A stretch of DNA of 64,000 bases from Candidatus Parcubacteria bacterium (GCA_026395595.1 JAPLYL010000003.1:76136-140135); one strand, 5' to 3'; shown: positions 6,224 through 53,820, counted from the stretch's first letter. The notes: a model not told the origin generated them from the sequence alone. Numbers and translations: made by a program.

Positions 6224-6499
6224 TTGTGGTATTGTTGGGTTATGAAAGGGAAAAGGAACATAAATGCTGAATTTAACGAGACTTTTACGACTATTTCTGT
6301 CTTCATGGAGTACTACAACAAGAACATCCCCGTAAGTTATCCCCATGCGACCAGAGGGTCCTTAGAAGCGTTCCGGAAGGCGTATCCGGGTCTTTTTGCT
6401 GATGGAAAAAAGTGGTCTATAGACAAACATCGCAAACGCCTCATGGACTGGCTCCCGTCCTACGACTTTAGCAAGGAAGTACCCTCAGAAGTTGAATAA
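6224..6499 (+). CDS. Small hypothetical protein. An alternative start is the internal Met of MEYYNKN... at about 6305.
   Basis: The ORF is followed directly by a strong intrinsic terminator. No homology was recognised. Confidence 0.3.
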   Translation: MWYCWVMKGKRNINAEFNETFTTISVFMEYYNKNIPVSYPHATRGSLEAFRKAYPGLFADGKKWSIDKHRKRLMDWLPSYDFSKEVPSEVE

Positions 6500-6503
6500 A
6501 ACC

Positions 6504-6531
6504 AAAAAATGCCCCAATCGGGGCATTTTTC
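6504..6531. terminator. Intrinsic terminator.
   Basis: The sequence aaaaaatgccccaatcggggcatttttc forms a GC hairpin followed by a T-run. Confidence 0.7.
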
Positions 6532-6538
6532 ATATTGC

Positions 6539-6591
6539 AAGGTCTTCCCTTAAGGAGGAGTGAAGTGACGGGGAAAGGGGAGACCTTGGGG
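6539..6591. repeat. Conserved hairpin element, copy 1 of 2 (the other is at 43180-43241). It has an 11-bp stem, aaggtcttccc pairing with ggggagacctt, and the loop contains a perfect SD sequence taaggagga.
   Basis: The 50-nt core is near-identical to the 43180 copy. The stem was checked base by base. It sits between convergent genes, so no downstream CDS could use the SD. Confidence 0.5.
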
Positions 6592-6610
6592 CTATTTCAC
6601 TCTGTTCCTT

Positions 6611-8062
6611 CTAAAACTTACTCCAGAGCATCTGGTTGGTAATCTCATGGTGATAGATTACCTCGCTTTTTTTAATGATGGCTCCGAGACCTTTCGGACT
6701 TCGGTCTGCCGTTTCTTGTTTGTAAGAAACAAACTTTTCGTGAGGTCTTTCTCCCAGCGTTTTTTTGAGGAATTCGCTTCCTTTGAAGAGCTTGATGGCA
6801 TCATTGATATTTCCGGGCAAGTAGCGGAGGCGGTCGCGTTTACTTTCATCTTTCAAAAGAGGTTCTCCTTCCATCGCCGTTTTGAGAATGGCATAGACGG
6901 CGATGTACGGGTTGGCGTCAGGAGCAACAGAGCGGATTTCAATGCGGGCGGATTTTTCATTTCCCGCCGGAATGCGTATCATGGAACTGCGGTCAATGGA
7001 AGAAACTTTGATTTGGTTCGGGGCTTCAAAGTGAGGGTCCAGTCGGCGATACGCATTGACGCTCGCATTCAAAAGAAGAGAAAGTTCCGGAGCATGATTG
7101 AGAAGTCGTGAAATGGAATCCCATGCAAGAGGAGATAACCCATCGTCTCCGTCTTTTCTGTAAAAGACATTCTTTCCTCCCTTCATAAAAGAGAGGTTGA
7201 TGTGCATTCCCGATCCGTTTATATTCGCCACCGGTTTCGGAAGAAAGGTCGCGGTCATTCCTTGGTTCGTCGCAATCTGCCGGCAAACCAATTTGTAAAG
7301 CTGAATTCTGTCGCATGCTTTAACGGCATCGGCGTAAGAGAAGGCAAGTTCAAACTGAGATGGCGCGACTTCGGGGTGATCTTTTTCGTTTTTGAATCCC
7401 ATCGCTCTTTGTGCTTCCGCGGCGGCATCAATAAAAATTTTCAAACGGTCTAGCGGGAGGGAGTGAAAATATCCGCCGGTTGAGATAAGTTTGAAACCTT
7501 CTTCCTCTTGAAAATTCTGTTCCGCATTTACTCCGTCAACAAGAAAACCTTCCACTTCCGCTGCTATGTAGGCGGTAAGACCTTGTTTCTTTTTCAGTTC
7601 TTGACTGAAGGACATGAGTTGCCCTCTGAAGTCTGAATCGTAGGGGGTTTTATCGCGATTCAAAACATTGGCAAAAAAGATAACTTTTCCGGGCCCGAAA
7701 ACATCGGAAGGAAGCCAGAGAATACTTGACCAATCCACCTCCATGCGGAGGTCGGACTCTTTCTGTACGGAAAAACCGCGGATGGATGAACCGTCAAAGG
7801 TAAGGTTATCGGCAGAATCTAAAAAGTAGTGCTTGTCATAATCAAGCATGTGAAATCGTCCTTCAATATCGGAGAAACAAAGCGTAACCGCTTTTATGCG
7901 TTTTTCTTTGGCAAGATAGTCGCGATATTCTTTTTCAAGAATCGCAGAACTTTCCGTTCCGGCTCTTTCAGAAGCTTTGAGATTCATCTCTTCCAAGAGG
8001 TCGTAAGGGATTTCCAAGAAGTTTTTAAGCCCTACGGGGCTAGAAATAGGTTCTTTTGCCAT
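6611..8062 (-). CDS. glnA: Glutamine synthetase family protein.
   Basis: It is 483 aa and has the GS beta-grasp motif FDGSSIRGF, a catalytic-domain layout, and an NxxxE-rich C-terminal half typical of GS. Confidence 0.75.
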   Translation of the reverse strand: MAKEPISSPVGLKNFLEIPYDLLEEMNLKASERAGTESSAILEKEYRDYLAKEKRIKAVTLCFSDIEGRFHMLDYDKHYFLDSADNLTFDGSSIRGFSVQKESDLRMEVDWSSILWLPSDVFGPGKVIFFANVLNRDKTPYDSDFRGQLMSFSQELKKKQGLTAYIAAEVEGFLVDGVNAEQNFQEEEGFKLISTGGYFHSLPLDRLKIFIDAAAEAQRAMGFKNEKDHPEVAPSQFELAFSYADAVKACDRIQLYKLVCRQIATNQGMTATFLPKPVANINGSGMHINLSFMKGGKNVFYRKDGDDGLSPLAWDSISRLLNHAPELSLLLNASVNAYRRLDPHFEAPNQIKVSSIDRSSMIRIPAGNEKSARIEIRSVAPDANPYIAVYAILKTAMEGEPLLKDESKRDRLRYLPGNINDAIKLFKGSEFLKKTLGERPHEKFVSYKQETADRSPKGLGAIIKKSEVIYHHEITNQMLWSKF

Positions 8063-8145
8063 ATATTTATACTAAAATGTTAGTAATTTACTATAAATAT
8101 ACTCCAATTTATATAAAAAGTCAATAACTTTATCCACTTTTTGTC

Positions 8146-8170
8146 GCCGGTACGAGGTTGTACCTCGTAC
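8146..8170. promoter_or_regulatory. Perfect 11-bp inverted repeat with a 3-nt spacer (cggtacgaggt tgt acctcgtaccg) in the divergent glnA / zinc-ribbon promoter region. It is a candidate operator.
   Basis: The palindrome was verified by reverse complement. It contains a GTA-N8-TAC arrangement. It lies about 80 nt upstream of glnA, next to a TTGACT-N18-TATATT promoter on the minus strand. Confidence 0.4.
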
Positions 8171-8270
8171 CGAAATGTTTGTATAACGAAATAATCTCTG
8201 TTTTTTATCTAAACTTTGTCATACACCTCCCCTTGGAAATTTCCCAAAAATCTGTTATTCTAATGACATT

Positions 8271-8516
8271 ATGGAGAACAAGAACCGTAAAAATTGCGAA
8301 AGCTGTCTTTTCCCCCTTTCCAAAGATCCCGGAGTAAGCGGGTCGGAAAAATACTGCAGTTATTGTTTCAAAGATGGAAAACTCGTTTACGAAGGCTCTG
8401 ACCTGAAAGAGTTTCAGAATCGTTCGTATCAAGAAATGATCAAGAAAGGAATGAATAAGTATCAGGCAAAATTTTTCACATGGATGATGCACTTTGCTCC
8501 CCGTTGGAAAAAGTAG
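8271..8516 (+). CDS. Small zinc-ribbon protein with two CxxC pairs (CESC...CSYC).
   Basis: It is 81 aa. The two cysteine pairs are spaced like a zinc-ribbon domain. Confidence 0.55.
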   Translation: MENKNRKNCESCLFPLSKDPGVSGSEKYCSYCFKDGKLVYEGSDLKEFQNRSYQEMIKKGMNKYQAKFFTWMMHFAPRWKK

Positions 8517-8561
8517 ACAATTCATTAAGAAAAAGTTAGATTTAAATCGGTTAAATCACAT

Positions 8562-8635
8562 TGCGGGATCATCTAATGGTAGGATGCGACTCTCTGAAAG
8601 TCGTCATCTTGGTTCGAATCCAAGTCCCGCAGCCA
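8562..8635 (+). tRNA. tRNA-Gln with anticodon CUG.
   Basis: The fold was built by hand. The acceptor TGCGGGA pairs with TCCCGCA. The D-arm is ATCT/GGAT with loop AATGGTA. The anticodon stem is CGACT/AGTCG with loop CTCTGAA. The T-arm is CTTGG-TTCGAAT-CCAAG. Discriminator G and CCA are encoded. Confidence 0.85.
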
Positions 8636-8659
8636 ACACGTGCTAGCACGAGAGGAGTT

Positions 8660-9616
8660 ATGAATAAAAATAAAAACAGACATGTTGCCATTAAATTTCT
8701 TGAAACGGCAAGAAAAGCAACTTTTGAAGATTGCACCATAAATGGGGGCATTGATTTAGCAGGTTCTGGACATAAGTTTATTCATACCTCAATAAATGTC
8801 TTTAAACAAGAACACCCTTTTTGGTTTTGGTTTGCTTCTGCTGGAACTCTTATAGGTCTCCTTACTTCACTCATGTTCTTAGCACAATTTTTTGGATATC
8901 TTCCTCTTTCCCTGAAAGATAATATCGTGGCTCTTTCAGGGCCGGGAGCTGAAAAGCAACAAGGAATGGCACTGGTCGCTTCTCCTCTCCAATTAAAATC
9001 TGGTTACATATCGGAAAAAACAAATAAATACGATATAAGTATTAAAGTTCCTATTTTTAACAATTCAAAAATAGACGATATTGTCCGCTCAGCTATTGAT
9101 GAAAAAATTGAAAAAATAAAATATAATCACTCCCTTGATAAAGATGAGTATATACAAAAATTAACCCTATACGGTGATTATGAAACTCCTTATGTTTCGG
9201 ATAGTATAATTAGCATAAAGTTTAATTTAGGTCAAAGTTATATATTTTCGGATGGCGGGTCTTCAATGGGTAATCTTAATTTGGCGTATGGGATAAACAT
9301 TGATACAAAGAATAACAAAGTTATCACCTTGTCTGATGAATTAAAATCTTTCGGTATAAATATTCGCCAGTTATCTGAAAGAATTAAAGAAAAACTATTT
9401 GAAAAGTATAAAATACGTGATTTACACTCAGACACAGGTTTAGATCCTTTTGGTTCAAATTATTCTGAATTCGTAATCTCAGACGAAAGAGTAACTTTTC
9501 TCTTTCAGGGGTTTCAAATAGATTCTTTAGGAAAATGTATGCCAGAAATTTCATTTACGACAGATGGTGGATTTTTAGACATTACTGATGCTACAAATTG
9601 GTGTTCGGGCAATTAA
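8660..9616 (+). CDS. Hypothetical membrane-anchored protein. Its start was re-assigned to the ATG after an AGAGGAG Shine-Dalgarno sequence, because the track ORF from 8561 overlaps the tRNA.
   Basis: There is an RBS agaggag followed by ATG. One TM helix is present (FWFWFASAGTLIGLLTSLMFLAQFF). No homology was recognised. Confidence 0.5.
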   Translation: MNKNKNRHVAIKFLETARKATFEDCTINGGIDLAGSGHKFIHTSINVFKQEHPFWFWFASAGTLIGLLTSLMFLAQFFGYLPLSLKDNIVALSGPGAEKQQGMALVASPLQLKSGYISEKTNKYDISIKVPIFNNSKIDDIVRSAIDEKIEKIKYNHSLDKDEYIQKLTLYGDYETPYVSDSIISIKFNLGQSYIFSDGGSSMGNLNLAYGINIDTKNNKVITLSDELKSFGINIRQLSERIKEKLFEKYKIRDLHSDTGLDPFGSNYSEFVISDERVTFLFQGFQIDSLGKCMPEISFTTDGGFLDITDATNWCSGN

Positions 9617-9693
9617 AAAGAGGGTAACCACACAATCTCTCCTGAACTATATCGTATTTCCACCAAATATCACTAATCAATTTCTGTAGATTT

Positions 9694-10737
9694 ATGAGAG
9701 TATATTTAGATACCCGTGGCAGATTCACAATTGGCATTCCGGACCATTGGATTTGTCGAGAAGAAGATACCGCTAATGGAAATCCCGTTACGTTTGATTT
9801 AGGCGATAAATCAGATGATTATTTTCAGATAAGTTGTTTTTCCACGAACCAAGGTATCGTCTCAAAAGTAGGGCATCATTATGTGGAGAATAAGTATTCG
9901 GATTCCCCAATAGTTTTTTTGAGACGAGTCATTCATATAGCAGATATGGTAACGACGGTCTTTGAGGCAAAGGTGGAGGGTCATTTTATATTAGTCACTC
10001 ATATCACATCAAAAAAGCAGATCCATTCTAAAACCACTAAAAAACACCTCCATCAAATTGAGCGGACACTGGAAAAGCTTCGTGTCGTTAATCCGTCAAG
10101 TTGGGCGTACGTTTCGACACACGCAAAATATAATAGATTCATGGTTTCTTTACTTGCGGCTATCGATTTGACAAACAAGGCACAGGAAAACGGATCATCA
10201 ATCGAATTGGTTATTCTTTATGCAAATCAGATTGATGCACACCTTCGTTTGGCACTGATACTACAAGAGCAGTTACAAAATTCTACGGATAATATTGACG
10301 CCACCCTCATTTTTCAAGGAAAGACGGATAAGCCGATATTTGAAAAAGAAATATATGAACGCGCTTTAAATCAAGGGGTGATTGAAAAATCTTTATACGA
10401 AAGGCTAAAAAATTTGTATGAATTGAGAAACGGAGTAGTGCATAGGTACATTATCTCAGACCTGAAAACAAACGACATTGTAAAACTTGTTGTCGATTAT
10501 ATGGATATTCATGAAATACTTGGAAAAAAGCTTTCAGCGCTTGAACAAGAACAATTTGAGAAAAATATTGGTATTTATGGTGGCGGAAATAATCCTACAA
10601 ATCCAATTGAAATTACTCAGATGAGGGGGCTGTTGACAGAATTGAAAGAAAAGCACAATAATGCACAAATTATAAAAGAAATGACAATTAAGGTAGAGGC
10701 GAATAATTCGCGGTCTAGTAAACCTAATGAGAAATAA
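9694..10737 (+). CDS. Hypothetical protein whose C-terminal region has an Rx4H motif (ELRNGVVHRY) consistent with a HEPN-type fold.
   Basis: It is a 347-aa intact ORF. The RNxxxH motif sits in a helical context. The HEPN assignment is inference from motif only. Confidence 0.5.
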   Translation: MRVYLDTRGRFTIGIPDHWICREEDTANGNPVTFDLGDKSDDYFQISCFSTNQGIVSKVGHHYVENKYSDSPIVFLRRVIHIADMVTTVFEAKVEGHFILVTHITSKKQIHSKTTKKHLHQIERTLEKLRVVNPSSWAYVSTHAKYNRFMVSLLAAIDLTNKAQENGSSIELVILYANQIDAHLRLALILQEQLQNSTDNIDATLIFQGKTDKPIFEKEIYERALNQGVIEKSLYERLKNLYELRNGVVHRYIISDLKTNDIVKLVVDYMDIHEILGKKLSALEQEQFEKNIGIYGGGNNPTNPIEITQMRGLLTELKEKHNNAQIIKEMTIKVEANNSRSSKPNEK

Positions 10738-10760
10738 AGCGTGTCATATTTGTCGCTTTT

Positions 10761-11567
10761 ATGAATCCACAAAATAAATCGTTAAAAGAAGAATTTCTAA
10801 AGCTTAAAAATGAAGTTGAGCCTTATATTCAGAATGGTCGAGTAAAAGACAAGAGCCATTTACAAAGCTACTTATACTTTGCTTACTACCCACTATTTAG
10901 TTTCGTAGAGTCAATATTAATTCTTTGTGAGAGTGGAAAATTCCGTAGTGCCGAATCACTCTTACGGTCGCTTATCGAGCTGCATATAAACGTCATTTAC
11001 TACCAAGTAGCTGACTCTGATCGCAGGCTTGCTATTTCCGTGAAAAAAGATCTTGAGGAGAAAATAACCGGGATTAGAGGAATTAGAGAGCTAATACGAA
11101 AATATCCTAATCTGAAATCCGACAACCCTAAAGACTTATTCAGTAATGAATGGCTAAAGGAAGCTGAAGACTGGGCAGAAGAACGACGACAAGCTATTTT
11201 GCGGGGAAATCACCTAATCAAGGCCGATAATGATTTGAGTTTAAAGGATAAGGCAATTAAGTGTGACCAGGCGAAAATGAAAGATATTGAAGCTGGGCAC
11301 TTTGAGCGAATGTATCATATGATTTACCGTCAGCTCTCACCATCGACGCACTTAAACATTGGTGGCATACAAGGTTTTGTTGATCAGAAAGAAGGGGGTA
11401 ATTATTTATTTAGTGATGGAGGTCAAAAAGATTACTACTTAATGCAAGAAGCTATTGCAATTTGTGTGGCCTTAACCAAGGATCTTTATGAAAATGGAGT
11501 GATTGTTGCAAAACTTCCAGATACTATTGGTCGCCTTGAAAAACTTCTAACTCGGAATTTGAGATAG
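10761..11567 (+). CDS. Hypothetical protein of 268 aa.
   Basis: It is an intact ORF 23 nt downstream of the previous gene and probably co-transcribed. It has an Rx6H-like segment (RQLSPSTH). No family was recognised. Confidence 0.5.
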   Translation: MNPQNKSLKEEFLKLKNEVEPYIQNGRVKDKSHLQSYLYFAYYPLFSFVESILILCESGKFRSAESLLRSLIELHINVIYYQVADSDRRLAISVKKDLEEKITGIRGIRELIRKYPNLKSDNPKDLFSNEWLKEAEDWAEERRQAILRGNHLIKADNDLSLKDKAIKCDQAKMKDIEAGHFERMYHMIYRQLSPSTHLNIGGIQGFVDQKEGGNYLFSDGGQKDYYLMQEAIAICVALTKDLYENGVIVAKLPDTIGRLEKLLTRNLR

Positions 11568-11649
11568 TCACGATTCTTTTTAATATCTCTTAATTTTCGG
11601 AATCGGGATTAGTCCCTAATCTTTGTGAAAGTATTGGTTAATTTCAACT

Positions 11650-12252
11650 ATGAACAAAAAACAAACAACAATCCTCGAAACTTTTAAAACAAACGTAGAT
11701 ATTGATACACTTCGTTGTGATGCTGATAAAATTGTCATTTCGCATGATACTTCTTATTTTATTTCATATCCGGAATTTATTAAATATTTCAGCGACATAA
11801 AACAGATTTCAAAACACAATGTTATTATCGGTATAAATTTTACCTACGGTTGGATGCCGACGATTTTCAATTTTCGGTCGAAAGATTTTGATAATGTGGT
11901 ATTAATTCTGAATAATGCTAAGAAGGGTATAGTTCCGCAAGTCCACGAGTTAGAGACGTTAAAAAAATGTTTTAATAATTCTCTTGTTGGGACATCAAAA
12001 CTTTTACATTTTATAAATCCCGAAATATTTGCAATCTGGGACAGCCGAGTGTATCGGTATTTAACAAATCATAGAGCTTATAATTATCACCTTAATAATT
12101 ATGAATCATATTTAGCTTATTTAGAATTTTGTAAATATATAACAAATCAGCCCGGTTTCGATTATATTCATAATTCTATCATTAAAAAAATGGGGAATGA
12201 AATAACAAAATATCGAACCGCAGAACTCGTTATGTTTTTATCTGTACAATAA
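11650..12252 (+). CDS. Hypothetical protein of 200 aa.
   Basis: It is an intact ORF with an AT-rich codon usage like the neighbouring island genes. Confidence 0.45.
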   Translation: MNKKQTTILETFKTNVDIDTLRCDADKIVISHDTSYFISYPEFIKYFSDIKQISKHNVIIGINFTYGWMPTIFNFRSKDFDNVVLILNNAKKGIVPQVHELETLKKCFNNSLVGTSKLLHFINPEIFAIWDSRVYRYLTNHRAYNYHLNNYESYLAYLEFCKYITNQPGFDYIHNSIIKKMGNEITKYRTAELVMFLSVQ

Positions 12253-12264
12253 GTATTTAAAAAT

Positions 12265-12447
12265 ATGAAAACACCTGAAACTTGTTTGTCCTGTAACAAA
12301 CTTTATTTAAAAAACCAGAATGATGTAGGAAAATTATGTTCAGAATGTGTATTGGATGAATCAATGCATGAATACCTGCAAGCATTGAGAAAGATTGAGC
12401 GCCGTTTGACTTTTGTTGAATGGTTGTTTGTTTTAGCAAAAGGTTAA
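12265..12447 (+). CDS. Small zinc-ribbon protein (CLSC...CSEC).
   Basis: It is 60 aa with two CxxC pairs. It starts 12 nt after the previous gene. Confidence 0.4.
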   Translation: MKTPETCLSCNKLYLKNQNDVGKLCSECVLDESMHEYLQALRKIERRLTFVEWLFVLAKG

Positions 12448-12504
12448 TTTTATGTGAAAAATTCGGGGCACGATTCTTTTTAAAACTTATGATATAATCA
12501 ATAA

Positions 12505-13257
12505 ATGGAAAAAATAAAAAAGCGACTTCCCGGACAATCTCTCGATGAAAAACTTCAAGATTTTGTTGATGAAAAACTTATTTTTTATCTTTTTTATATC
12601 ACTGTAATTGTGATTGTTATTATTGGAGAATGGGTCCGTTTCTTTTGGAAATTTGAACCGCACCCGGTGGTAATTTCGATTGTTGGTTTAATTGTAGTAA
12701 TTTATCTTGTAAACCAAATTTTTAATAATCTAAAGGATGTCAAAAAGTTAAAAAAGGGGAGAGACGGAGAAAGAGAAGTCGGTCAGTATCTTGAGGAAAT
12801 GCGGTCGACGGGTGCACTCATTTTTCACGATATCCTTGGGCCGAATTTCAATATAGATCATGTCATTGTGTCACCGCATGGAATTTTTACTGTAGAGACG
12901 AAAACCTGGAGTAAGCGAGCCAAAAATGAGTCAATAAAGTTTGATGGAAAACATTTAATCGTAAATGGATATTCTCCAGACAGAGATCCTCTTGCTCAAT
13001 CGCTCGCTCAATCTCAATGGTTGAAAAATCTCTTGAAAGAAAGTACTGGAAAAGAATTTATTGTGAACCCTGTAATCGTTTTCAATGGGTGGTTTGTAGA
13101 GTCAGAAACAACTCGTCAGGTTAAAGAATATGGAGTCTTAGTTTTAAATCCAAAAGCCTTGCCGTCATTTGTGAATAATAATTTTACTAACATGAGTAAT
13201 GAAGATTTGCATTTAATCGCCTATCATCTCGCTCGCCATATACAATCACCAATTTAA
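12505..13257 (+). CDS. NERD (nuclease-related domain) protein with an N-terminal double TM anchor.
   Basis: The NERD signature is GRDGEREVGQYL ... FHDI ... IDHVIVSPHGIFTVETKTW. Two N-terminal hydrophobic helices are present. Confidence 0.65.
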   Translation: MEKIKKRLPGQSLDEKLQDFVDEKLIFYLFYITVIVIVIIGEWVRFFWKFEPHPVVISIVGLIVVIYLVNQIFNNLKDVKKLKKGRDGEREVGQYLEEMRSTGALIFHDILGPNFNIDHVIVSPHGIFTVETKTWSKRAKNESIKFDGKHLIVNGYSPDRDPLAQSLAQSQWLKNLLKESTGKEFIVNPVIVFNGWFVESETTRQVKEYGVLVLNPKALPSFVNNNFTNMSNEDLHLIAYHLARHIQSPI

Positions 13258-13342
13258 CGGATTCATGAATTAAAGCTGCCCCCATTCCTTGCTAGCACGA
13301 GAACAATTTTAGAATAATATTTCTCGGTAGTATTTTAAATAT

Positions 13343-13993
13343 ATGAAATTATCTCTTCAAAAAACATTATTTTCTATTGCCTCAGAGATGCAGGTAAAAG
13401 GCGACCCTTCGCATGATTTTTCTCATGTTGAGAGAGTTTTACACTTGGCAGTAGATATTGCAAAAACAGTGAATGCTGATTTAGATATTGTTATTCCAGC
13501 CGCTTTATTTCACGATATTATTGTGTATAAAAAAGACAGCAAGGAAAGTAAAAATGAAGCGAACGAAAGTGCTGATGTTGCAGAAAAAGTACTACGAAGT
13601 ATGTCGGAATATCCAAACAAAAAGGTAGAGTCAGTAAAGACCTGTATAACTCAATGTTCCTTTTCAAAAGGCATCACGCCAACCCTCTTGGAAGCAAAGG
13701 TACTTCAAGATGCCGACCGATTGGAAGCGACAGGTGCTATTTCTATCATGCGAACATTTGCCTCTTGTGGTCAGATGGGGAGACCTTTTTACTCAAAAGA
13801 TGACCCGTTGTGCAAAAAAGAAGCGATACCTTTTCGTTCCGGTATTGATTTGTTCTATAACAGACTTCTTATCGTTGAGAGTATGATGCATACGAAATAT
13901 ACCAAAAAAATAGCAAGACAAAGAACAAAATTTCTTAAACAATTTCTTGCTCAGTTTGAAAAGGAATTGAAGGAATCGGGAATCATTGAATAA
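13343..13993 (+). CDS. HD-domain phosphohydrolase.
   Basis: The H...HD...D metal-binding pattern is present (FSHVERV, LFHDI, QDADRLEATG). Confidence 0.65.
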   Translation: MKLSLQKTLFSIASEMQVKGDPSHDFSHVERVLHLAVDIAKTVNADLDIVIPAALFHDIIVYKKDSKESKNEANESADVAEKVLRSMSEYPNKKVESVKTCITQCSFSKGITPTLLEAKVLQDADRLEATGAISIMRTFASCGQMGRPFYSKDDPLCKKEAIPFRSGIDLFYNRLLIVESMMHTKYTKKIARQRTKFLKQFLAQFEKELKESGIIE

Positions 13994-14015
13994 TATTATT
14001 CTAAACAAAAATAGC

Positions 14016-14120
14016 CGCCCGAGAGCCGTCGATGTGATATTCTTAAATTAAGTAAATCCGCCTTGCAGGGCTTGGTTTCGCACGGTTCCAGTCCGGGGAC
14101 GACAGCCAAATCGTGCTATG
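14016..14120. repeat. Island repeat family C, copy 1. It starts 23 nt after the HD gene stop.
   Basis: Conserved blocks are shared with copies at 16062-16165, 16950-16975 (partial) and 18272-18397. They are CGAGAGCCGTCG, GGCTTGGTTTCGCA, a T-arm-like GGTTCCAGTCC, and CGACAGC. Confidence 0.6.
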
Positions 14121-14189
14121 TTATTTCGCTCGAGATGCATCGATAAATAGAAAATAACATCAAAATGTCGTAGGTGATAAAATTCATAA

Positions 14190-18271: not shown

Positions 18272-18397
18272 CGCCCAAGAGCCGTCGTTGTGGTAATCTG
18301 ATATTAAGCCCTTCGGCTCGTTTTGCTCGCTCAGGATAAACAAATCCGCCTTGCAAGGCTTGGTTTCGCATGGTTCTGGTCCGAGGGCGACAGCGAG
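18272..18397. repeat. Island repeat family C, copy 3. It starts 23 nt after the dinD stop and has a 33-nt insertion relative to copy 1.
   Basis: It is near-identical to copy 1 outside the insertion. Confidence 0.6.
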
Positions 18398-18429
18398 CTT
18401 GAGATAAGTTCGGAGTCCGAGAAGCATTA

Positions 18430-18992
18430 AATCAACCACCCCGCCCCGAAGGGGACGGGGTATGAACAGAACATGGGTGTCAATTCCACAGCGTGGGCTG
18501 CGTGGTAATTCCCATCGTCTTTCCTTGGTTCTCGACATACTGCTTTACGGTATTCCAATTCCCCCGTTCGCTTACAGTGGCAAGGTAATATCCATCGCTC
18601 CAAAATTCACCTCCCCAAAGTTTTTTCCGCAATTCAGGAAATCGCTTGAACAATTCCCGAGCAGTTATACTCTTAAACATTCCTACGATTTGTGAACCCT
18701 TATATTTTGGATGAAAAGAACAGAGTATATGAATATGATTACCATCGGTGCCTACTTTCTCAAACTCAATTTCGTACCTCTCTTCTATTTCCTTAGCGAT
18801 TTCCAGAATTGCTCCTTTTATTTCCTCACTAAGTAATGACTTCCGATACTTTACCGGAAAGACGATATGGTAGTGCGTATCATATACGCAGTGATTGCTT
18901 CGAGTGACACCCATGTTGCTATTATATCAGAAAACCGAGGGTTTTCAGACTTTCCTACACGGTTCCCGCCCCAAGGGGCGGGGTAAGGGCTT
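18430..18992 (-). mobile_element. IS200/IS605-family insertion sequence with minimal tnpA only. It has subterminal hairpins at both ends.
   Basis: tnpA has the HuH motif YDTHYHIVF and a YYLATV catalytic tyrosine region. The hairpins ccccgcccc-gaa-ggggacgggg (18438-18461) and cccgcccc-aa-ggggcggg (18965-18982) flank the gene. Confidence 0.75.
18480..18914 (-). CDS. tnpA: IS200/IS605 family transposase TnpA (Y1 HuH).
   Basis: The 144-aa protein MGVTRSNHCVYDTHYHIVFPVKYRKSLL... is a textbook IS200 TnpA. Confidence 0.85.
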   Translation of the reverse strand: MGVTRSNHCVYDTHYHIVFPVKYRKSLLSEEIKGAILEIAKEIEERYEIEFEKVGTDGNHIHILCSFHPKYKGSQIVGMFKSITARELFKRFPELRKKLWGGEFWSDGYYLATVSERGNWNTVKQYVENQGKTMGITTQPTLWN

Positions 18993-38343: not shown

Positions 38344-38354
38344 ATAAATAATAT

Positions 38355-38441
38355 AAAAATAGTAAAATAGTAAAATAGAAAAATTAGCCAACGTTTTTGT
38401 TTTGAATTTTCTTATTTTTCTATTTTCTTATTTTTCTATTT
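38355..38441. repeat. AT-rich repeat block in the groES-groEL spacer. Tandem 8-mers (agtaaaat x2, agaaaaat) face a perfect 16-nt tandem duplication (tcttatttttctattt x2).
   Basis: The repeats were read directly. The two halves are partially reverse-complementary. Confidence 0.5.
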
Positions 38442-38448
38442 AAAAAAT

Positions 38449-40101
38449 ATGTCAAAGCAAATAATCTACGATGAAAAAGCTCGGGCTCTTTTAAAAGAAG
38501 GGGTTGATAAAGTGGCGAACGCGGTGAAGATCACTATTGGCCCTCGCGGTAAGAATGTTATTCTTGACCGAAGTTATGGATCTCCGATGATTACGAATGA
38601 TGGCGTTACTATCGCCAAAGAAATTTCTCTTTCCGATAAGGTGGAAAATATGGGAGCGGAAATGATCAAAGAGGTCGCTTCCAAAACGAATGAAGTGGCC
38701 GGCGATGGTACGACGACCGCGGTGGTTCTCGCACAAGCGATGATATCTGAAGGAATGAAGAAAACGACTATGGGAGTAAATGCCATGGGCGTTCGTTTGG
38801 GGATTGAAGCCGGAGCGGAAGCAATCGTCGCTGCGCTTAAAGCTATGGCGAAACCGATTAAGAATCATTCTGAAATAAAACAGGTCGCCACTATTTCCGC
38901 CGAGTCCGAAGAGATTGGAAAGATTATTGCCGATACTATTGATAAAGTCGGACAAGACGGCGTTGTGACCGTTGAAGAATCGCAGACAGTCGGCATTGAA
39001 TCCGAAGTGGTGAAAGGCCTGCAATTTGAAAAAGGGTACGTCTCTCCGTATCTCATTACGAATGCAGAAAGAATGGACGCGGAATATAGCGATGTAGCCG
39101 TTCTTCTTACTGACAAAAAAATATCTTCCATTAAAGAAATTCTTCCTTTGTTGGAAAAGTTGGCACAGACCGGAAAAAAAGATTTGGTCATTATCGCTGA
39201 CGATGTTGACGGCGAGGCGCTCTCAACTTTTATCGTCAACAAGCTTCGCGGAACCTTTAACATTCTTGCGGTGAAAGCGCCGGGATTCGGAGACAGAAAA
39301 AAAGAAACCTTGGCTGACATTGCCGTCGTTATTGGAGGAAAAGTTGTCTCCGAAGATGTTGGAATGAAATTGGAAACGGCTGAAATTACGGTTCTCGGAC
39401 ATGCGGGAAAAGTTATCGCCACAAAAGACCATACCACTATCGTCGGAGGAAAAGGGAAGAAGCAGGACATTGATTCTCGTATCGCTCAGATTCGCAAACA
39501 GATGGAAACGACTGATTCAAAATTTGATAAAGAAAAACTGACAGAAAGACTCGCGAAACTCGCTGGAGGCGTAGCGGTCATTAAGGTAGGGGCTGCGACG
39601 GAAACGGAAATGAAATATCTGAAATTAAAAATAGAGGATGCGGTCAATGCGACGAAAGCTGCTATTGAAGAAGGTGTTGTTCCGGGAGGCGGAGTGGCTC
39701 TGGTAAAGGCTGCAGAAAAATTGAGCGCAAAACCTGTGGTCGCACCGCTTAAGAATTTTGAAGCGGAATACAAGGTGGGTTGGGAAATCGTCATGAAGGC
39801 GGTGGAAGCTCCTCTTCGCCAGATCGCCATCAATGCCGGAAAAGACGGTTCCGTAATCGTTGAAAAAGTGCGAACCTCAAAAGGAAATGGCGGTTATGAT
39901 GCTAAGGCGGACGAAATGATCGCTGATATGCTTCTCGCCGGAATCATTGATCCGGTCAAAGTAACCAGAAGTGGATTACAGAACGCCGCGAGTGCCGCAG
40001 CTATTCTTCTTACTACGGAAGTTGCTATTACGGAAGAACCAAAAGAAGAAAAACAAATGGGAGGAGGAATGCCTGGGGGTATGGGTGGAATGGACTACTA
40101 A
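38449..40101 (+). CDS. groL: Chaperonin GroEL.
   Basis: The N-terminus is MSKQIIYDEKARALLKEGVDKVANAVKITIGPRGKNV. The C-terminus is the GGM tail (GGMPGGMGGMDY). Confidence 0.97.
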   Translation: MSKQIIYDEKARALLKEGVDKVANAVKITIGPRGKNVILDRSYGSPMITNDGVTIAKEISLSDKVENMGAEMIKEVASKTNEVAGDGTTTAVVLAQAMISEGMKKTTMGVNAMGVRLGIEAGAEAIVAALKAMAKPIKNHSEIKQVATISAESEEIGKIIADTIDKVGQDGVVTVEESQTVGIESEVVKGLQFEKGYVSPYLITNAERMDAEYSDVAVLLTDKKISSIKEILPLLEKLAQTGKKDLVIIADDVDGEALSTFIVNKLRGTFNILAVKAPGFGDRKKETLADIAVVIGGKVVSEDVGMKLETAEITVLGHAGKVIATKDHTTIVGGKGKKQDIDSRIAQIRKQMETTDSKFDKEKLTERLAKLAGGVAVIKVGAATETEMKYLKLKIEDAVNATKAAIEEGVVPGGGVALVKAAEKLSAKPVVAPLKNFEAEYKVGWEIVMKAVEAPLRQIAINAGKDGSVIVEKVRTSKGNGGYDAKADEMIADMLLAGIIDPVKVTRSGLQNAASAAAILLTTEVAITEEPKEEKQMGGGMPGGMGGMDY

Positions 40102-42264: not shown

Positions 42265-43158
42265 ATGGCAACACTATATACTTTGCAAAGCACGAATACT
42301 CGTCGGACGTGGTATCTTATGACCACCTTCTTTATTGTGATTATGATGCTCGGTTGGGCGGTAAGCTGGTATTATGGAAGTTCTGCAATCCTGTATGGCT
42401 TTGTTTTCTTTAGCATATTCATGAACATTTTCAGTTATTGGTTTTCCGACAAAATAGTCCTCTCCATGTCCGGGGCGAAAGAAATAACTCGCAACGCGTA
42501 TTTTGACCTCTGGAACATTGTTGAAAATCTTTCTATTACCGCAGGACTTCCCATGCCGAAAGTCTATGTGATTGATGATCCGGCTCCGAACGCTTTTGCG
42601 ACGGGCCGCGATAAAGAACATTCCGCCGTGGCGGTAACAACAGGACTCCTCGGAATGATGGAACGAAGCGAACTGGAGGGGGTGATCGCTCATGAACTTT
42701 CTCACGTGGGGAATAAAGATATTCTTTTGCAAACCGTCGTTGTTATTCTTGTCGGTTTCGTTACTTTGCTGGCTGACTTTTTTATACGTTCCACTTTTTG
42801 GAGCGGGGGACGAGATCGTGATGATAGGGCGGGAGGTATTGCTTTGGTTATCGGTATTGTTTTGTCTATTTTGGCACCTCTTTTTGCTCAACTCATACAG
42901 CTCGCGATTTCCAGAAAAAGAGAATTTCTCGCCGATGCATCGGGGGCTCTTTTGACTCGTTATCCCGAAGGACTCGCCATGGCTCTGGAAAAAATATCCG
43001 GCTATAAAGGGGGAATGAAAACCGCCAACCGAGCGACCGCCCATATGTTCATCGCCAACCCCTTCGGCCCCGCCGGTTTCAAAGGAAAAGCCGCCACTCT
43101 CTTTATGACCCATCCGCCGGTGGAACAGAGGATTAAGGCCCTCCGAGACATGGCGTAA
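42265..43158 (+). CDS. htpX: Zinc metalloprotease HtpX (M48).
   Basis: N-terminal TM helices are followed by HEXXH (IAHELSHV) and a downstream Glu. It sits immediately after lemA, which is a common pairing. Confidence 0.9.
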   Translation: MATLYTLQSTNTRRTWYLMTTFFIVIMMLGWAVSWYYGSSAILYGFVFFSIFMNIFSYWFSDKIVLSMSGAKEITRNAYFDLWNIVENLSITAGLPMPKVYVIDDPAPNAFATGRDKEHSAVAVTTGLLGMMERSELEGVIAHELSHVGNKDILLQTVVVILVGFVTLLADFFIRSTFWSGGRDRDDRAGGIALVIGIVLSILAPLFAQLIQLAISRKREFLADASGALLTRYPEGLAMALEKISGYKGGMKTANRATAHMFIANPFGPAGFKGKAATLFMTHPPVEQRIKALRDMA

Positions 43159-43179
43159 TGTTTTTTCACTTAGCGGACA

Positions 43180-43241
43180 AAGGTCTTCCCTTAAGGAGGA
43201 ATGAAGCGAAGCGGAATGACGGGGAAAGGGGAGACCTTGGG
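43180..43241. repeat. Conserved hairpin element, copy 2. It is the same stem as 6539-6591 with an SD-containing loop, plus a 10-nt insertion cgaagcggaa.
   Basis: It aligns with copy 1 across aaggtcttcccttaaggagga.tgaag ... tgacggggaaaggggagaccttggg. Confidence 0.5.
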
Positions 43242-43329
43242 TAGCGGTACCCCCCCTGATTTCCCGTTCCAACCACACGTGCAAAAAATCTTTTTTTCTG
43301 ATATAGTGGGAACACAATTTAATAGAGCA

Positions 43330-43414
43330 GGAGGGTTCGCATAGTGGCCGAGTGCGCGCGCTTGGAAAGCGCGTAGGGGGCAACCTCTCATGAGTTCGAA
43401 TCTCATACCCTCCG
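43330..43414 (+). tRNA. tRNA-Ser with anticodon GGA (class II, long variable arm).
   Basis: The fold was built by hand. The acceptor GGAGGGT pairs with ACCCTCC. The D-arm is GCA-TAGTGGCCGAG-TGC. The anticodon stem is CGCGC/GCGCG with loop TTGGAAA. The variable arm TAGGGGGCAACCTCTC is long. The T-arm is ATGAG-TTCGAAT-CTCAT. The discriminator is G. Confidence 0.85.
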
Positions 43415-43508
43415 CAGATTTGGAACGCAGTGGAAAAGCTGCGGAGGGTATGAGATGAGAAGTTTATCCTCGGTAGCGAAGCGGACGGGGAAATCTCATA
43501 CCCTCCGC
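43413..43508. repeat. Left boundary of the tRNA-Ser-adjacent island. It holds a 27-nt core cgcagatttggaacgcagtggaaaagc, which recurs at 45925-45951. It also holds an inverted copy (43441-43456) and a direct copy (43493-43508) of the tRNA 3' end atctcataccctccgc.
   Basis: All copies were read directly. The inverted and direct copies can form a 16-bp stem that mimics the tRNA acceptor/T-arm. Confidence 0.6.
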
Positions 43509-43535
43509 CAAGAATATTTTGTATCGGATGACCCA

Positions 43536-44082: not shown

Positions 44083-44190
44083 CCCGACCTGAGTGCCTTA
44101 ACTTCACTCGGGAAAATGATCTACAATACCTTTACAAGGTCTTGCCTCCTGGATACTTAACCCGAGTGGCCCGCTCGTAGTATTTTTTAT
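44083..44190. repeat. Island-2 repeat family R, copy 2.
   Basis: atacctttacaaggtcttgcctcctggatacttaacccgagtggcccgctcgtag is homologous to the copies at 44865-44935 and 45870-45951. An extra hairpin cctgagtg...cactcggg lies upstream. Confidence 0.55.
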
Positions 44191-44804: not shown

Positions 44805-44864
44805 GGATTGCCTCAATTTCATAAAAACAGACATACTCGGAGACCTCTGCGTACGTAGGAAAAA

Positions 44865-44935
44865 TATGCTAAAATACCCTTACAAGTTGTTGGACTCGCT
44901 AGTACTGAACCCGAGTGGCCCGCCTTAAGAAAAAA
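44865..44935. repeat. Island-2 repeat family R, copy 3.
   Basis: tatgctaaaatacccttacaagttgttggactcgctagtactgaacccgagtggcccgcc aligns along its full length with the 45870 copy. Confidence 0.55.
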
Positions 44936-45770: not shown

Positions 45771-45869
45771 AAGGTTATCTCCTTTTTTAATGAAATTTCT
45801 GTTTTCAATATTATCGGATTTGCCTCGTAAAGTCCAATATATTAAATGTCTTGCTCTGTTCGCTAAAAG

Positions 45870-45951
45870 TATGCTAAAACATCTTTATATTGCTTGAAAT
45901 CGCTGGTACTGAACCTGAGTAGTACGCAGATTTGGAATGCAGTGGAAAAGC
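45870..45951. repeat. Island-2 repeat family R, copy 4, fused to the right-hand copy of the 27-nt boundary core cgcagatttggaatgcagtggaaaagc.
   Basis: It has one mismatch relative to 43413-43439. Confidence 0.6.
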
Positions 45952-48704: not shown

Positions 48705-48726
48705 GAATTGGCCGGTTTCAAATAAA

Positions 48727-48826
48727 ATTTTCAATTTACAATTTTTAATTTTCAATCAATTTTTAAATAACAATTTTCAAACACAGCGTCGTCCGTGTTT
48801 GAAAATTAAAAATTGTAAATTGAAAA
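48727..48826. repeat. AT-rich palindromic element of 100 nt. It has perfect 28-bp inverted arms and a 43-nt central region with its own sub-hairpin.
   Basis: The arms ttttcaatttacaatttttaattttcaa and ttgaaaattaaaaattgtaaattgaaaa were verified as exact reverse complements. The inner pairing is caattttcaaacac with gtgtttgaaaattg. Confidence 0.65.
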
Positions 48827-48882
48827 CTTTATCGCGTATTTCTCCCGTGTCATAAATTATTTTTTCCTATATAATAAACCAT

Positions 48883-53730: not shown

Positions 53731-53820
53731 AAGAGCTTTTAGCTGTTAGGTTTTAGGTATGAGCTTAAAACGATTATTTTTGAAAAAGCTAAAAGCTGAT
53801 AGCTAATACCTAAAAGCTAA
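53731..53820. repeat. agcttttag inverted-repeat element, family member 2 (see 1288-1436).
   Basis: The left arm is agcttttagctgttaggttttaggtatgagctt. The right arm is aagctaaaagctgatagctaatacctaaaagcta. It shares the 19-nt block agctgt.aggttttag with the first copy. Confidence 0.55.

Follow-up and report, generated by a model that had tools for sequence, protein, structure and literature searches.

A probable low-copy mobile palindromic repeat with a Shine-Dalgarno-like loop in Paceibacteria-like members of the candidate phyla radiation

A 64,000-nt stretch of DNA from Candidatus Parcubacteria bacterium (GCA_026395595.1, JAPLYL010000003.1:76136-140135; hereafter the window, whose numbering is used throughout) contains two copies of a hairpin that carries a perfect Shine-Dalgarno (SD) sequence in its loop. 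These two hairpins are real copies of a repeat family, and a chance duplication is excluded. The family is previously undescribed and, as far as sampled, confined to a clade of the candidate phyla radiation (CPR) that comprises Paceibacteria- and Nomurabacteria-like organisms; its general kind, that of the small palindromic repeats, is already known. [quoted passage not shown] As copies are gained and lost between close relatives and also occur in frame within genes, the element behaves like a small mobile repeat and not like a ribosome-binding site (RBS).

Structure and distribution of the repeat family

Both window copies lie on the + strand, with cores at 6539-6591 (copy 1) and 43180-43241 (copy 2), as a preliminary description of this DNA had placed them. 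They share two exact arms, the 21-mer AAGGTCTTCCCTTAAGGAGGA (6539-6559 and 43180-43200) and the 25-mer TGACGGGGAAAGGGGAGACCTTGGG (6566-6590 and 43217-43241), each of which is present exactly twice in the window, and no arm matches were recovered from shuffled sequences even when three mismatches were tolerated. Apart from 10 additional loop bases, CGAAGCGGAA (43207-43216), copy 2 differs from copy 1 by a single G/A substitution. The outer stem of 11 bp with one G-U pair that had been traced by hand is correct, and extends to 13-14 bp, including one U-G pair, in both copies. The minimum free energy (MFE) structures of copies 1 and 2 have energies of -23.5 and -26.2 kcal/mol (z -2.2 and -3.4), and the main helix was independently predicted by RNAalifold.

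Across the family the hairpin-forming repeat unit spans about 55-95 nt and comprises a main helix, P2, together with a small hairpin at its center, P3; its loop of 25-35 nt contains two near-invariant purine-rich blocks, CUUCCCUUAAGGAGGA and GACGGGGAAAGG. Both P2 and P3 change in sequence between sub-families yet keep their pairing. The outer part of P2 reads AAGGUCU/AGACCUU in most copies, AAGGACU/AGUCCUU in L007b (L001-L050 denote loci or contigs fetched from other genomes and metagenomes), CCCGACU/AGUCGGG in the L014 sub-family, CCAAGGACUGUCC/GGACAGUCCUUGG in L029 and CCAAGGGCAGUCC/GGACUGCCCUUGG in L011b (in DNA spelling AAGGTCT/AGACCTT, AAGGACT/AGTCCTT, CCCGACT/AGTCGGG, CCAAGGACTGTCC/GGACAGTCCTTGG and CCAAGGGCAGTCC/GGACTGCCCTTGG). 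P3 ranges from a GCGAAGC mini-hairpin up to perfect 7-bp helices, such as GUGAAGC-CGA-GCUUCAC in L010 and GACGAGC-CGA-GCUCGUC in L014. In pair counts for P2 and P3 on a 14-sequence alignment (A3), 86.8% of the cells are paired versus 77.3% in shuffles, none of which (0/500) reaches the observed value, and sliding the partner by 1-3 columns as a control leaves 38-56% paired. Double-sided changes are seen in nine pairs, which is matched by one of 500 shuffles, and one U-G pair is kept in all 13 distinct sequences. The remaining wobble pairs (three G-U versus four A-C) favor no strand, and wobble-pair asymmetry as a test of RNA versus DNA is uninformative beyond this single invariant U-G. As there are few covariation events, drawn from a small number of lineages, these statistics demonstrate a constrained hairpin and do not discriminate between its reading as RNA and as single-stranded DNA. 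An outer helix, P1, formed by flanking sequence (e.g. uaguuuuuau/auaaaaacua in L010 and gaaaucgc/gcgauuuc in L014) is significant in only about 6 of 16 copies and present in neither window copy, and is therefore not a defining part of the element.

The same element was recovered from at least six other metagenome-assembled genomes (MAGs) or metagenome contigs of Paceibacteria/Nomurabacteria. An 18-mer consisting of the 5' arm and the SD, scanned against 185,579 species genomes, gave three true matches, all in CPR MAGs and all with a matching 3' arm (one in Candidatus Nomurabacteria Ike-200m-9 and two at separate sites in one Paceibacterota MAG), along with three chance matches. A metagenome scan that used only the two stem halves, with a free gap of 30-60 nt between them, yielded six true matches (four of them new), all of which contain TTAAGGAGGA, and two GC-rich chance matches that lack it. 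Searches of the fetched loci with nhmmer and covariance models added L007b, L011b, L021, the diverged L014 sub-family with its arrays and the long form of L029, and scores with the covariance model (R1) leave a gap of more than 40 bits between true copies and noise. The copy number is 2 in the 64 kb of the window and about one per 50-100 kb in loci fetched via protein anchors. Rather than a lone pair with no covariation elsewhere, which the preliminary description had regarded as the outcome that would speak for a chance duplication, there are copies in several CPR genomes; the check for covariation in other genomes that it had proposed likewise reveals covarying stems. Pattern searches of viral contigs gave nothing or chance matches only. 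No Rfam 15 family matches the short or the long form at gathering thresholds, and at E<=10 both retrieve only miRNA-type noise. No account of such repeats in CPR bacteria turned up in literature searches.

A rarer long form of about 160-200 nt is exemplified by the unit of about 160 nt in L029, in which the arms and loop blocks of the family surround an extra structured domain. Here AAGGAGGU pairs with ACCUUCUU, which masks the SD, and the fold is very stable (-70.3 kcal/mol, z -7.5). To judge from their sequences, the short forms look like internal-deletion derivatives that have retained the ends and the two loop blocks. The hairpin had been described as one that sequesters a perfect SD: the SD is indeed present in the loop (TAAGGAGG has two occurrences in the window, both in the repeat copies), but it is unpaired in the MFE structure of both window copies, as in short-form MFE structures in general, and pairing is seen in the long form of L029 and in L011b, where it involves UUUCCUCC. 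An alternative small hairpin, CUUCC-CUUAA-GGAGG, read from the sequence, would mask the SD.

The SD-like motif is followed by GTG or ATG in the window copies, by GCG in L001 and L007 and by ACG in the L014 long form, and the reading frames past the motif are unrelated between copies, which agrees with their earlier characterization as short and non-conserved. In L029 an AUG lies 6 nt after the SD AAGGAGGTGA, inside a small helix, and opens an 11-codon open reading frame (ORF); the homologous long unit of L014 has ACG at this position and a different ORF, and since two stops in L029 interrupt the longer L014 ORF, the ORF is not conserved. An SD-like motif is found in the upstream regions of about 7 of 50 window genes. 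In many window genes the ATG is preceded, at a distance of only 5-10 nt, by a (TG)nTATAAT-like box, which suggests that leaderless or very-short-leader mRNAs may be widespread in this organism. We infer that the perfect SD is no working RBS for a neighboring gene; it would instead be a conserved piece of the recognition or loop motif, or else be left over from the long form, where it is paired with ACCUUCUU.

Genomic contexts and turnover between relatives

Copies of the element are found directly after co-directional genes (window copy 2, L002, L010 and L011), between convergent genes (window copy 1, L021 and L011) and directly upstream of a gene (L014). The earlier observations that both window copies lie just 3' of a gene end and that copy 1 is situated between convergent genes hold. 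Copy 1 follows a 91-aa ORF (6224-6499, +) and its terminator (6503-6532) and faces the convergent glnA (6611-8062, -), and copy 2 lies 22 nt past htpX (42265-43158) and 90 nt ahead of tRNA-Ser(GGA) (43330-43415). Genes around the copies code for GlnA, LemA, HtpX and a GATase. In L014 units of 54-57 nt are repeated in tandem to either side of a 289-aa winged helix-turn-helix (wHTH) gene, in arrays (5782-5418 and 4275-3959 of L014, -) that each end in one complete hairpin. The arrays lie divergent from ftsK; their unit comprises the 5' arm, the SD block, half of P3 and a constant spacer, and the second array starts with a long-form unit. TIGR arrays (TIGR-Tas), which have units of about 36 nt with variable spacers and lie next to a Tas (Nop-domain) gene, were considered for L014 and rejected on account of the 54-57-nt period, the near-identical "spacers" and the neighboring wHTH and ftsK genes; the two window copies are solitary.

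Copies inside genes were seen at three insertion sites (that shared by L001 and L007a, that of L007b, and L004), and they sit in frames that keep the protein open. A surface protein with NosD/β-helix/LCAT domains in L001 has one copy in its C-terminal linker and its orthologue in L007 has two, with the frame open through the copies and on to a conserved C-terminal membrane anchor. In L004 the UPF0102/YraN domain is interrupted after profile position 42 of 80 by an in-frame insert containing the element. The encoded peptide is ...SLKEE(Q/R)SDGERG.LGE in L001/L007 and KGLPLRRSGEKRSD... in L004; as the 5' halves are read in different frames, there is no conserved peptide. The same L004 insert includes, about 110 nt past the element, a partial second loop match, GGGAGGAGCGAAGCCGACGG (2715-2740, -).

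To study the turnover of the window copies, syntenic contigs of close relatives were reached via HtpX and GlnA homologues. The element follows htpX only in the window. The htpX-tRNA-Ser spacer lacks it in L015-20, L026 and L050 (HtpX 85-94% identity), in which the tRNA promoter block acgtgcaaaaaa..ttctgatatagtgg is conserved, and the relatives that keep this spacer hold other palindromes there; L027-29 (HtpX 84-85%) have no element after htpX and have other genes in place of tRNA-Ser. Copy 1 is common to the window and to the closest available relative, GCA_026395575.1 (L021; GlnA 96%). The site 3' of glnA is occupied in these two and unoccupied in L022-25, and copy 1 is missing in relatives at 87-88% GlnA identity, where synteny is also different. 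That MAG, GCA_026395575.1, has copy 1 (L021) but not copy 2 (L050); each copy therefore has a history of its own, and the pair does not delimit an island. Copies are thus gained or lost between close relatives, and the unequal number in the L001 and L007 orthologues is a further instance.

Other small palindromes, gtcattccggcc..ggccggaatc and similar ones, occur, also in frame, in the same linkers and spacers of relatives, so that these genomes harbor several such families, of which the element is one. Such families are located in the htpX-tRNA-Ser spacer of L015-L020, L026 and L050, at 3776-4030 of L001 and at 8370-8500 of L007; examples include gtcattccggccttgagccggaatc and tggatcc..gggatgac, with translations such as VPRHSGPEPES, VIPLKKGIQ and DPRIREDDG.

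Nature of the element and alternative explanations

In the mobile-repeat interpretation the element would be copied or maintained non-autonomously at the DNA level, with some trans-acting factor reading the folded top strand and the invariant blocks. This might proceed by single-strand hairpin recognition of the type known from REP sequences and their REP-associated tyrosine transposases (RAYTs) or from IS200/IS605 elements, or else by copy-to-copy recombination. Template switching within the palindrome could then account both for compensatory changes in the stem and for its occasional lengthening into the flanking DNA, and where transcribed the element may be a passive or mildly useful RNA hairpin in the 3' untranslated region (UTR). 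Enzymology of this general type is present in the window as an IS200/IS605 Y1 transposase gene (18480-18914). The preliminary description had listed a mobile RBS-hairpin module among its candidate roles: mobility is retained here, in view of the varied contexts, the covarying stems and the presence and absence of copies in relatives, whereas the RBS component is abandoned as there is no conserved start or ORF.

Several observations weigh against this interpretation. No transposase, RAYT or integrase was found adjoining any copy. The hairpins of the window IS200, CCCGCCCC..GGGGCGGG, differ from the element, and its Y1 protein scores 29.7 bits with the RAYT model versus a cut-off of 80. The window IS200 was accordingly rejected as the mobilizing enzyme, its end hairpins being unrelated and found nowhere else in the window. 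Neither a target-site duplication nor a clean empty site could be defined, the entire spacer being different between relatives; the flanks are without a direct repeat, and where anything is seen it is inverted (the outer helix of about 6 of 16 copies). The copy number seems low as against the far more numerous REPs, and the loop blocks are invariant though the stems of the sub-families have turned over completely. What fits a purely selfish element least well is the conservation of orthologous copies. The copies of L001 and L007a differ at 1 of 53 nt in a fast-evolving linker with a protein identity of roughly 65-70% by eye; and window copy 1 differs from that of L021 at 2 of 53 nt versus 10 of 70 in the flanks. 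Copies so much better conserved than their flanks are also what selection on a functional sequence would give; they call for selection at the nucleotide level, gene conversion among copies or recurrent site-specific insertion.

For this reason we reserve a minority share of likelihood for a domesticated RNA function, such as 3'-end protection or binding of the anti-SD or of a protein, which is not mutually exclusive with mobility. The element would then be a repeated structured RNA module on the + strand that presents the SD in its short form or masks it in its long form (CUUCC/GGAGG), with the 16S anti-SD or a GGA-binding protein as its ligand, and that could act as a stabilizer of mRNA 3' ends, a STAB-SD-like element, a decoy or standby site for the 30S subunit or, in arrays, a sponge. 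Besides the contrast between orthologous copies and flanks, this possibility draws on the invariance of the loop blocks while the stems covary, on the U-G pair kept in 13 of 13 distinct sequences and on the survival of P3 in copy 1 through two G-C to G-U changes. Most copies are sense-oriented and downstream of or inside a co-directional gene, the long form has the strong SD-masking fold described above, the L014 arrays place 4-6 SD-bearing units upstream of a gene, and TAAGGAGG is found nowhere else in a window whose genes mostly lack an SD. Against it, close relatives have no element at the same locus, and the contexts are heterogeneous and include two reading frames inside proteins. Window copy 1 and the L021 copy lie past the terminator of the 91-aa ORF, antisense to glnA and between the glnA stop and the terminator, so that the main transcript there would carry the reverse complement. 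Moreover, no promoter-like site is present upstream of either window copy, no Rfam family is matched even at E<=10 and, beyond the invariant U-G, G-U pairs are not in excess of A-C (3 versus 4). A bolder version, which we hold to be more doubtful still, envisages a CPR-specific structured RNA module with mobile-repeat-like spread, whose loop would be a genuine ligand of the 16S anti-SD or of a GGA-binding protein; the short form would expose the SD, and the long form and 5' half-units would mask it by a mimic of the 16S tail (ACCUUCUU / CUUCC). If this were true, the copies would be dispersed 30S-docking or decoy sites that stabilize transcripts or titrate ribosomes, and the L014 arrays would be sponges.

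The other explanations fare far worse. A portable RBS, its loop SD driving the translation of a small ORF or gene downstream or, when folded, regulating it, could be read from the GTG/ATG after the SD in both window copies, with their common (V/M)TGKGETLG reading, and from the ATG 6 nt after AAGGAGGTGA and its 11-codon ORF in L029. It is very improbable and largely refuted by the lack of a conserved start codon (GCG stands in its place in L001 and L007, ACG in the long form of L014), by frames that diverge directly past the arm, by the two stops in L029 within the longer ORF of L014, by the convergent gene facing copy 1, by ORF-internal copies in two different frames and by a genome whose genes rarely use an SD (about 43 of 50 window genes lack one). 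We give slightly less credence again to att-type sites (attL/attR) that bound the 36.6-kb interval between the copies as an integrated island, or to another site-specific recombination site; a recombination site had been among the roles suggested earlier. The two direct copies are 36,641 nt apart, and one is near a tRNA-Ser with att-like repeats of its 3' end; but the interval is ordinary core genome (glmS, cofD, groES/EL, a DUF4349 gene, lemA and htpX) with the same gene order in relatives that lack copy 2, GCA_026395575.1 carries only copy 1, copies elsewhere are solitary, in arrays or inside ORFs, and no integrase lies beside either copy. Least credible of all is a chance duplication of a terminator-like sequence, or a DNA-uptake-type motif present as an inverted repeat. 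The position after gene ends and the abundance of the single arm AAGGTCTYCCC (11 occurrences with at most one mismatch versus 1.8 expected) are in its favor, yet the arms are long with zero chance matches expected, the family recurs in other genomes, no T-run follows the stem and it was not called as a terminator. The seven extra single arms are isolated, mostly imperfect, within coding sequence and far below the density of DNA uptake sequences (DUS/USS); a DNA uptake sequence was rejected on this comparison, seven arms in 64 kb as against about one per kb on both strands.

Among known systems, the REP sequences and bacterial interspersed mosaic elements (BIMEs) of E. coli and Pseudomonas, with their RAYTs, offer several parallels to the mobile-repeat interpretation. 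They are short imperfect palindromes with a conserved stem mismatch, mostly 3' of genes or between convergent genes, in several copies per genome and similar in sequence across species, presumably via a trans-acting enzyme that reads them; a gene of the Y1 transposase family is likewise in the same window as our element. REPs measure 20-40 nt, have a small loop, carry GTAG/GTGG on the 5' side and typically occur in far larger numbers per genome, whereas the present unit has 55-95 nt, a conserved loop of 25-35 nt, a nested hairpin, a seemingly low copy number and a 5' context of GGACA/CCCC/CTAA with no GTAG. No RAYT gene was detected in the window, and the sole Y1 gene seen there (18480-18914) fails the RAYT model and is an IS200 TnpA (transpos_IS200, 133 bits) flanked by other hairpins. 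The subterminal hairpins of IS200/IS605 and palindrome-associated transposable elements share a strand-specific hairpin architecture with the element. The top strand is the G-rich strand (positive GC skew) throughout the window, an orientation that one would expect of elements processed as single-stranded DNA on the lagging-strand template; the hairpin, however, is unrelated to those of the window IS200, and there is one hairpin per unit with no distinct left and right ends. Integron attC sites are also imperfect palindromes whose length varies, conserved at the ends and variable in the center, just 3' of ORFs, but here there is neither an RYYYAAC nor a GTTRRRY box, neither an integrase nor a cassette array, and the conserved parts are the loop blocks. 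SD-sequestering hairpins, STAB-SD elements and the GGA-repeat sponges of the CsrB/RsmZ type resemble the element in their SD-like purine tract, in a loop or paired with an anti-SD mimic, and the L014 arrays in particular resemble multi-site sponges; the element differs in having no regulated downstream ORF, no promoter and no Rfam match, and in its coding-sequence contexts.

RPEs are palindromic repeats found both in intergenic regions and in frame within unrelated protein genes, where they add a peptide and leave the frame intact (PMC10969869). The in-frame copies in the L001/L007 surface-protein linker and the L004 YraN domain are reminiscent of these, though RPEs measure about 100-150 bp, belong to an alphaproteobacterial genus and encode one conserved peptide per family, whereas our family uses two frames, has most of its copies between genes and was seen inside genes at only three sites. 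Bacterial MITEs (e.g. Correia/CREE, ERIC, BOX, RUP, SPRITE and QMITE2) are small non-autonomous elements with inverted termini that, when co-transcribed, form stable RNA hairpins, often in the 3' UTR; their short forms resemble internal-deletion derivatives, and their spacers tend to hold other repeat families as well (PMC10969869). In the present element the complementary P2 arms of 11-14 nt form the ends in the manner of terminal inverted repeats, and presence/absence polymorphism is seen at orthologous sites (the htpX-tRNA-Ser spacer, the glnA 3' site, and L007 versus L001). It departs from the MITEs in that no target-site duplication is seen and no parent insertion sequence (IS) with the same termini is known, and its long form (L029, L014) has no transposase and only a non-conserved mini-ORF.

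CPR genomes are tiny and are thought to carry little repetitive DNA, and their non-coding repertoire is almost uncharted. The element is a defined and searchable motif, with nested covarying helices, two near-invariant blocks, short and long forms, arrays and in-frame copies, that can be used to trace repeat dynamics and strain-level variation in Paceibacteria, to flag spurious or extended ORF calls in MAG annotation, and to seek, by phylogenetic profiling, the enzyme or the RNA-binding partner by which the invariant blocks are read. If the SD-like loop truly engages the ribosome in this mostly SD-less lineage, it would constitute a new kind of translation-linked element; if it does not, the family would be another REP/MITE-like selfish palindrome of mainly taxonomic interest. 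Likeness to a tRNA, SRP RNA, rRNA fragment or ribozyme (hammerhead, twister, pistol) was assessed by eye only, and no convincing core motifs were seen.

The two copies and other features of the window

All features of the two copies lie on the + strand. Copy 1, a short form, matches the covariance model in full at 6533-6593 (72.6 bits, E 4.7e-18). Its P2 consists of a 5' strand CAAGGTCTTCCCTT at 6538-6551, delimited by folding, alignment and RNAalifold, and a 3' strand AAGGGGAGACCTTG at 6575-6588, delimited by folding, pair counts and RNAalifold. The SD-like loop motif TAAGGAGGA (6551-6559; motif scan and alignment) lies within the invariant block CTTCCCTTAAGGAGGA, an 8-bp palindrome CCTTAAGG (6548-6555) is read directly from the sequence, and the central mini-hairpin GTGAAGT (6560-6566; alignment) is followed by the invariant 3' loop block GACGGGGAAAGG (6567-6578). 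As the orthologous L021 copy has GCGAAGC, both mini-hairpin pairs of copy 1 are G-U. Copy 2, with its 10 extra loop bases, is matched in full at 43174-43244 (86.6 bits, E 4.3e-22), and its flanks, GCGGACA and GGGTAGCG, are both sub-family-specific. Folding and pair counts place its P2 strands at 43180-43192 (5') and 43226-43238 (3'), and the motif scan places its SD-like motif TAAGGAGGA at 43192-43200. The central P3 region ATGAAGCGAAGCGGAAT (43201-43217) includes a GCGAAGC mini-hairpin at 43206-43212, and its columns are perfect 7-bp helices in L010 and the L014 sub-family; the invariant block GACGGGGAAAGG follows at 43218-43229.

A chimeric hairpin module is present at the 3' end of tRNA-Ser (43417-43509, +), its stem consisting of two copies of the tRNA 3' end, one inverted and one direct, and its loop carrying GGTAGCGAAGCGGACGGGGAAA. 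It represents an insertion of 92 nt with direct, inverted and direct copies of the tRNA end (MFE -53.9 kcal/mol, z -6.1), and the GGUAGCGAAGCGGACGGGGAAA within its loop is homologous to the 3' half of the loop of the element, which suggests, from sequence comparison, that the loop module can associate with different stems. The 20-nt block that copy 2 had been reported to share with this hairpin is real but gapped, AGCGAAGCGGA[ATGA]CGGGGAAA versus AGCGAAGCGGACGGGGAAA (~43477-43495). The insertion is found in the window and in L019 (1684-1778) and is absent in L015-18, L020, L026 and L050; it is polymorphic among strains with identical HtpX (L019 versus L018/L020), with the encoded CCA moved to the distal copy.

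The IS200/IS605-type insertion sequence of the window is compact (18430-18990) and has no tnpB. Its gene (18480-18914, -) codes for a 144-aa Y1 transposase (Pfam Y1_Tnp, 1.5e-37; NCBIfam transpos_IS200, 133 bits) and is flanked by similar hairpins, ACCCCGCCCCgaagGGGACGGGGT (18438-18461) and CCCGCCCCaaGGGGCGGG (18965-18982). Abutting it is the second copy of a direct repeat of about 75-110 nt with 80% identity (~14020-14122 and 18275-18410, +; 4.3 kb apart), whose fold is not unusually stable (z ~0) and which encloses a 620-aa ORF with no Pfam match, a methyltransferase and a Bro-N protein. Besides tRNA, just one curated RNA family is represented in the window, by a full-length match to LOOT RNA (Rfam RF03000; 20273-20394, +; 77.9 bits, gathering 46.4).

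Past tRNA-Ser, an intergenic repeat of about 65 nt, aaaatatgctaaaataccc..ttacaag..tactKaacccgagtggcccgc, occurs in three copies (~44115-44175, 44862-44925 and 45865-45930, +), each of which opens with a -10-like box; after the third copy comes cagatttggaatgcagtggaaaagc, which is also present after tRNA-Ser at 43415-43440. On the glnA side, a low-GC block (8000-14000; 0.34-0.35 versus ~0.42) begins from tRNA-Gln (8562-8635) and contains HepT-like, DUF5677, NERD and HD-domain genes, so that it is probably an accessory or defense island; the equivalent glnA side of L021 contains a large serine recombinase and an archaeo-eukaryotic primase (AEP) primase-helicase. Heptamer repeats AAAAGCT/AAAACCT, both inverted and direct, are located at 1286-1435 and 53734-53818, directly upstream of the gene starts at 1441 and 53823. 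Finally, long AT-rich inverted repeats (40 nt at 80%; 37 nt at 95%) precede groEL (38348-38450; gene at 38449) and a PAS histidine kinase gene (48722-48832; gene at 48883).

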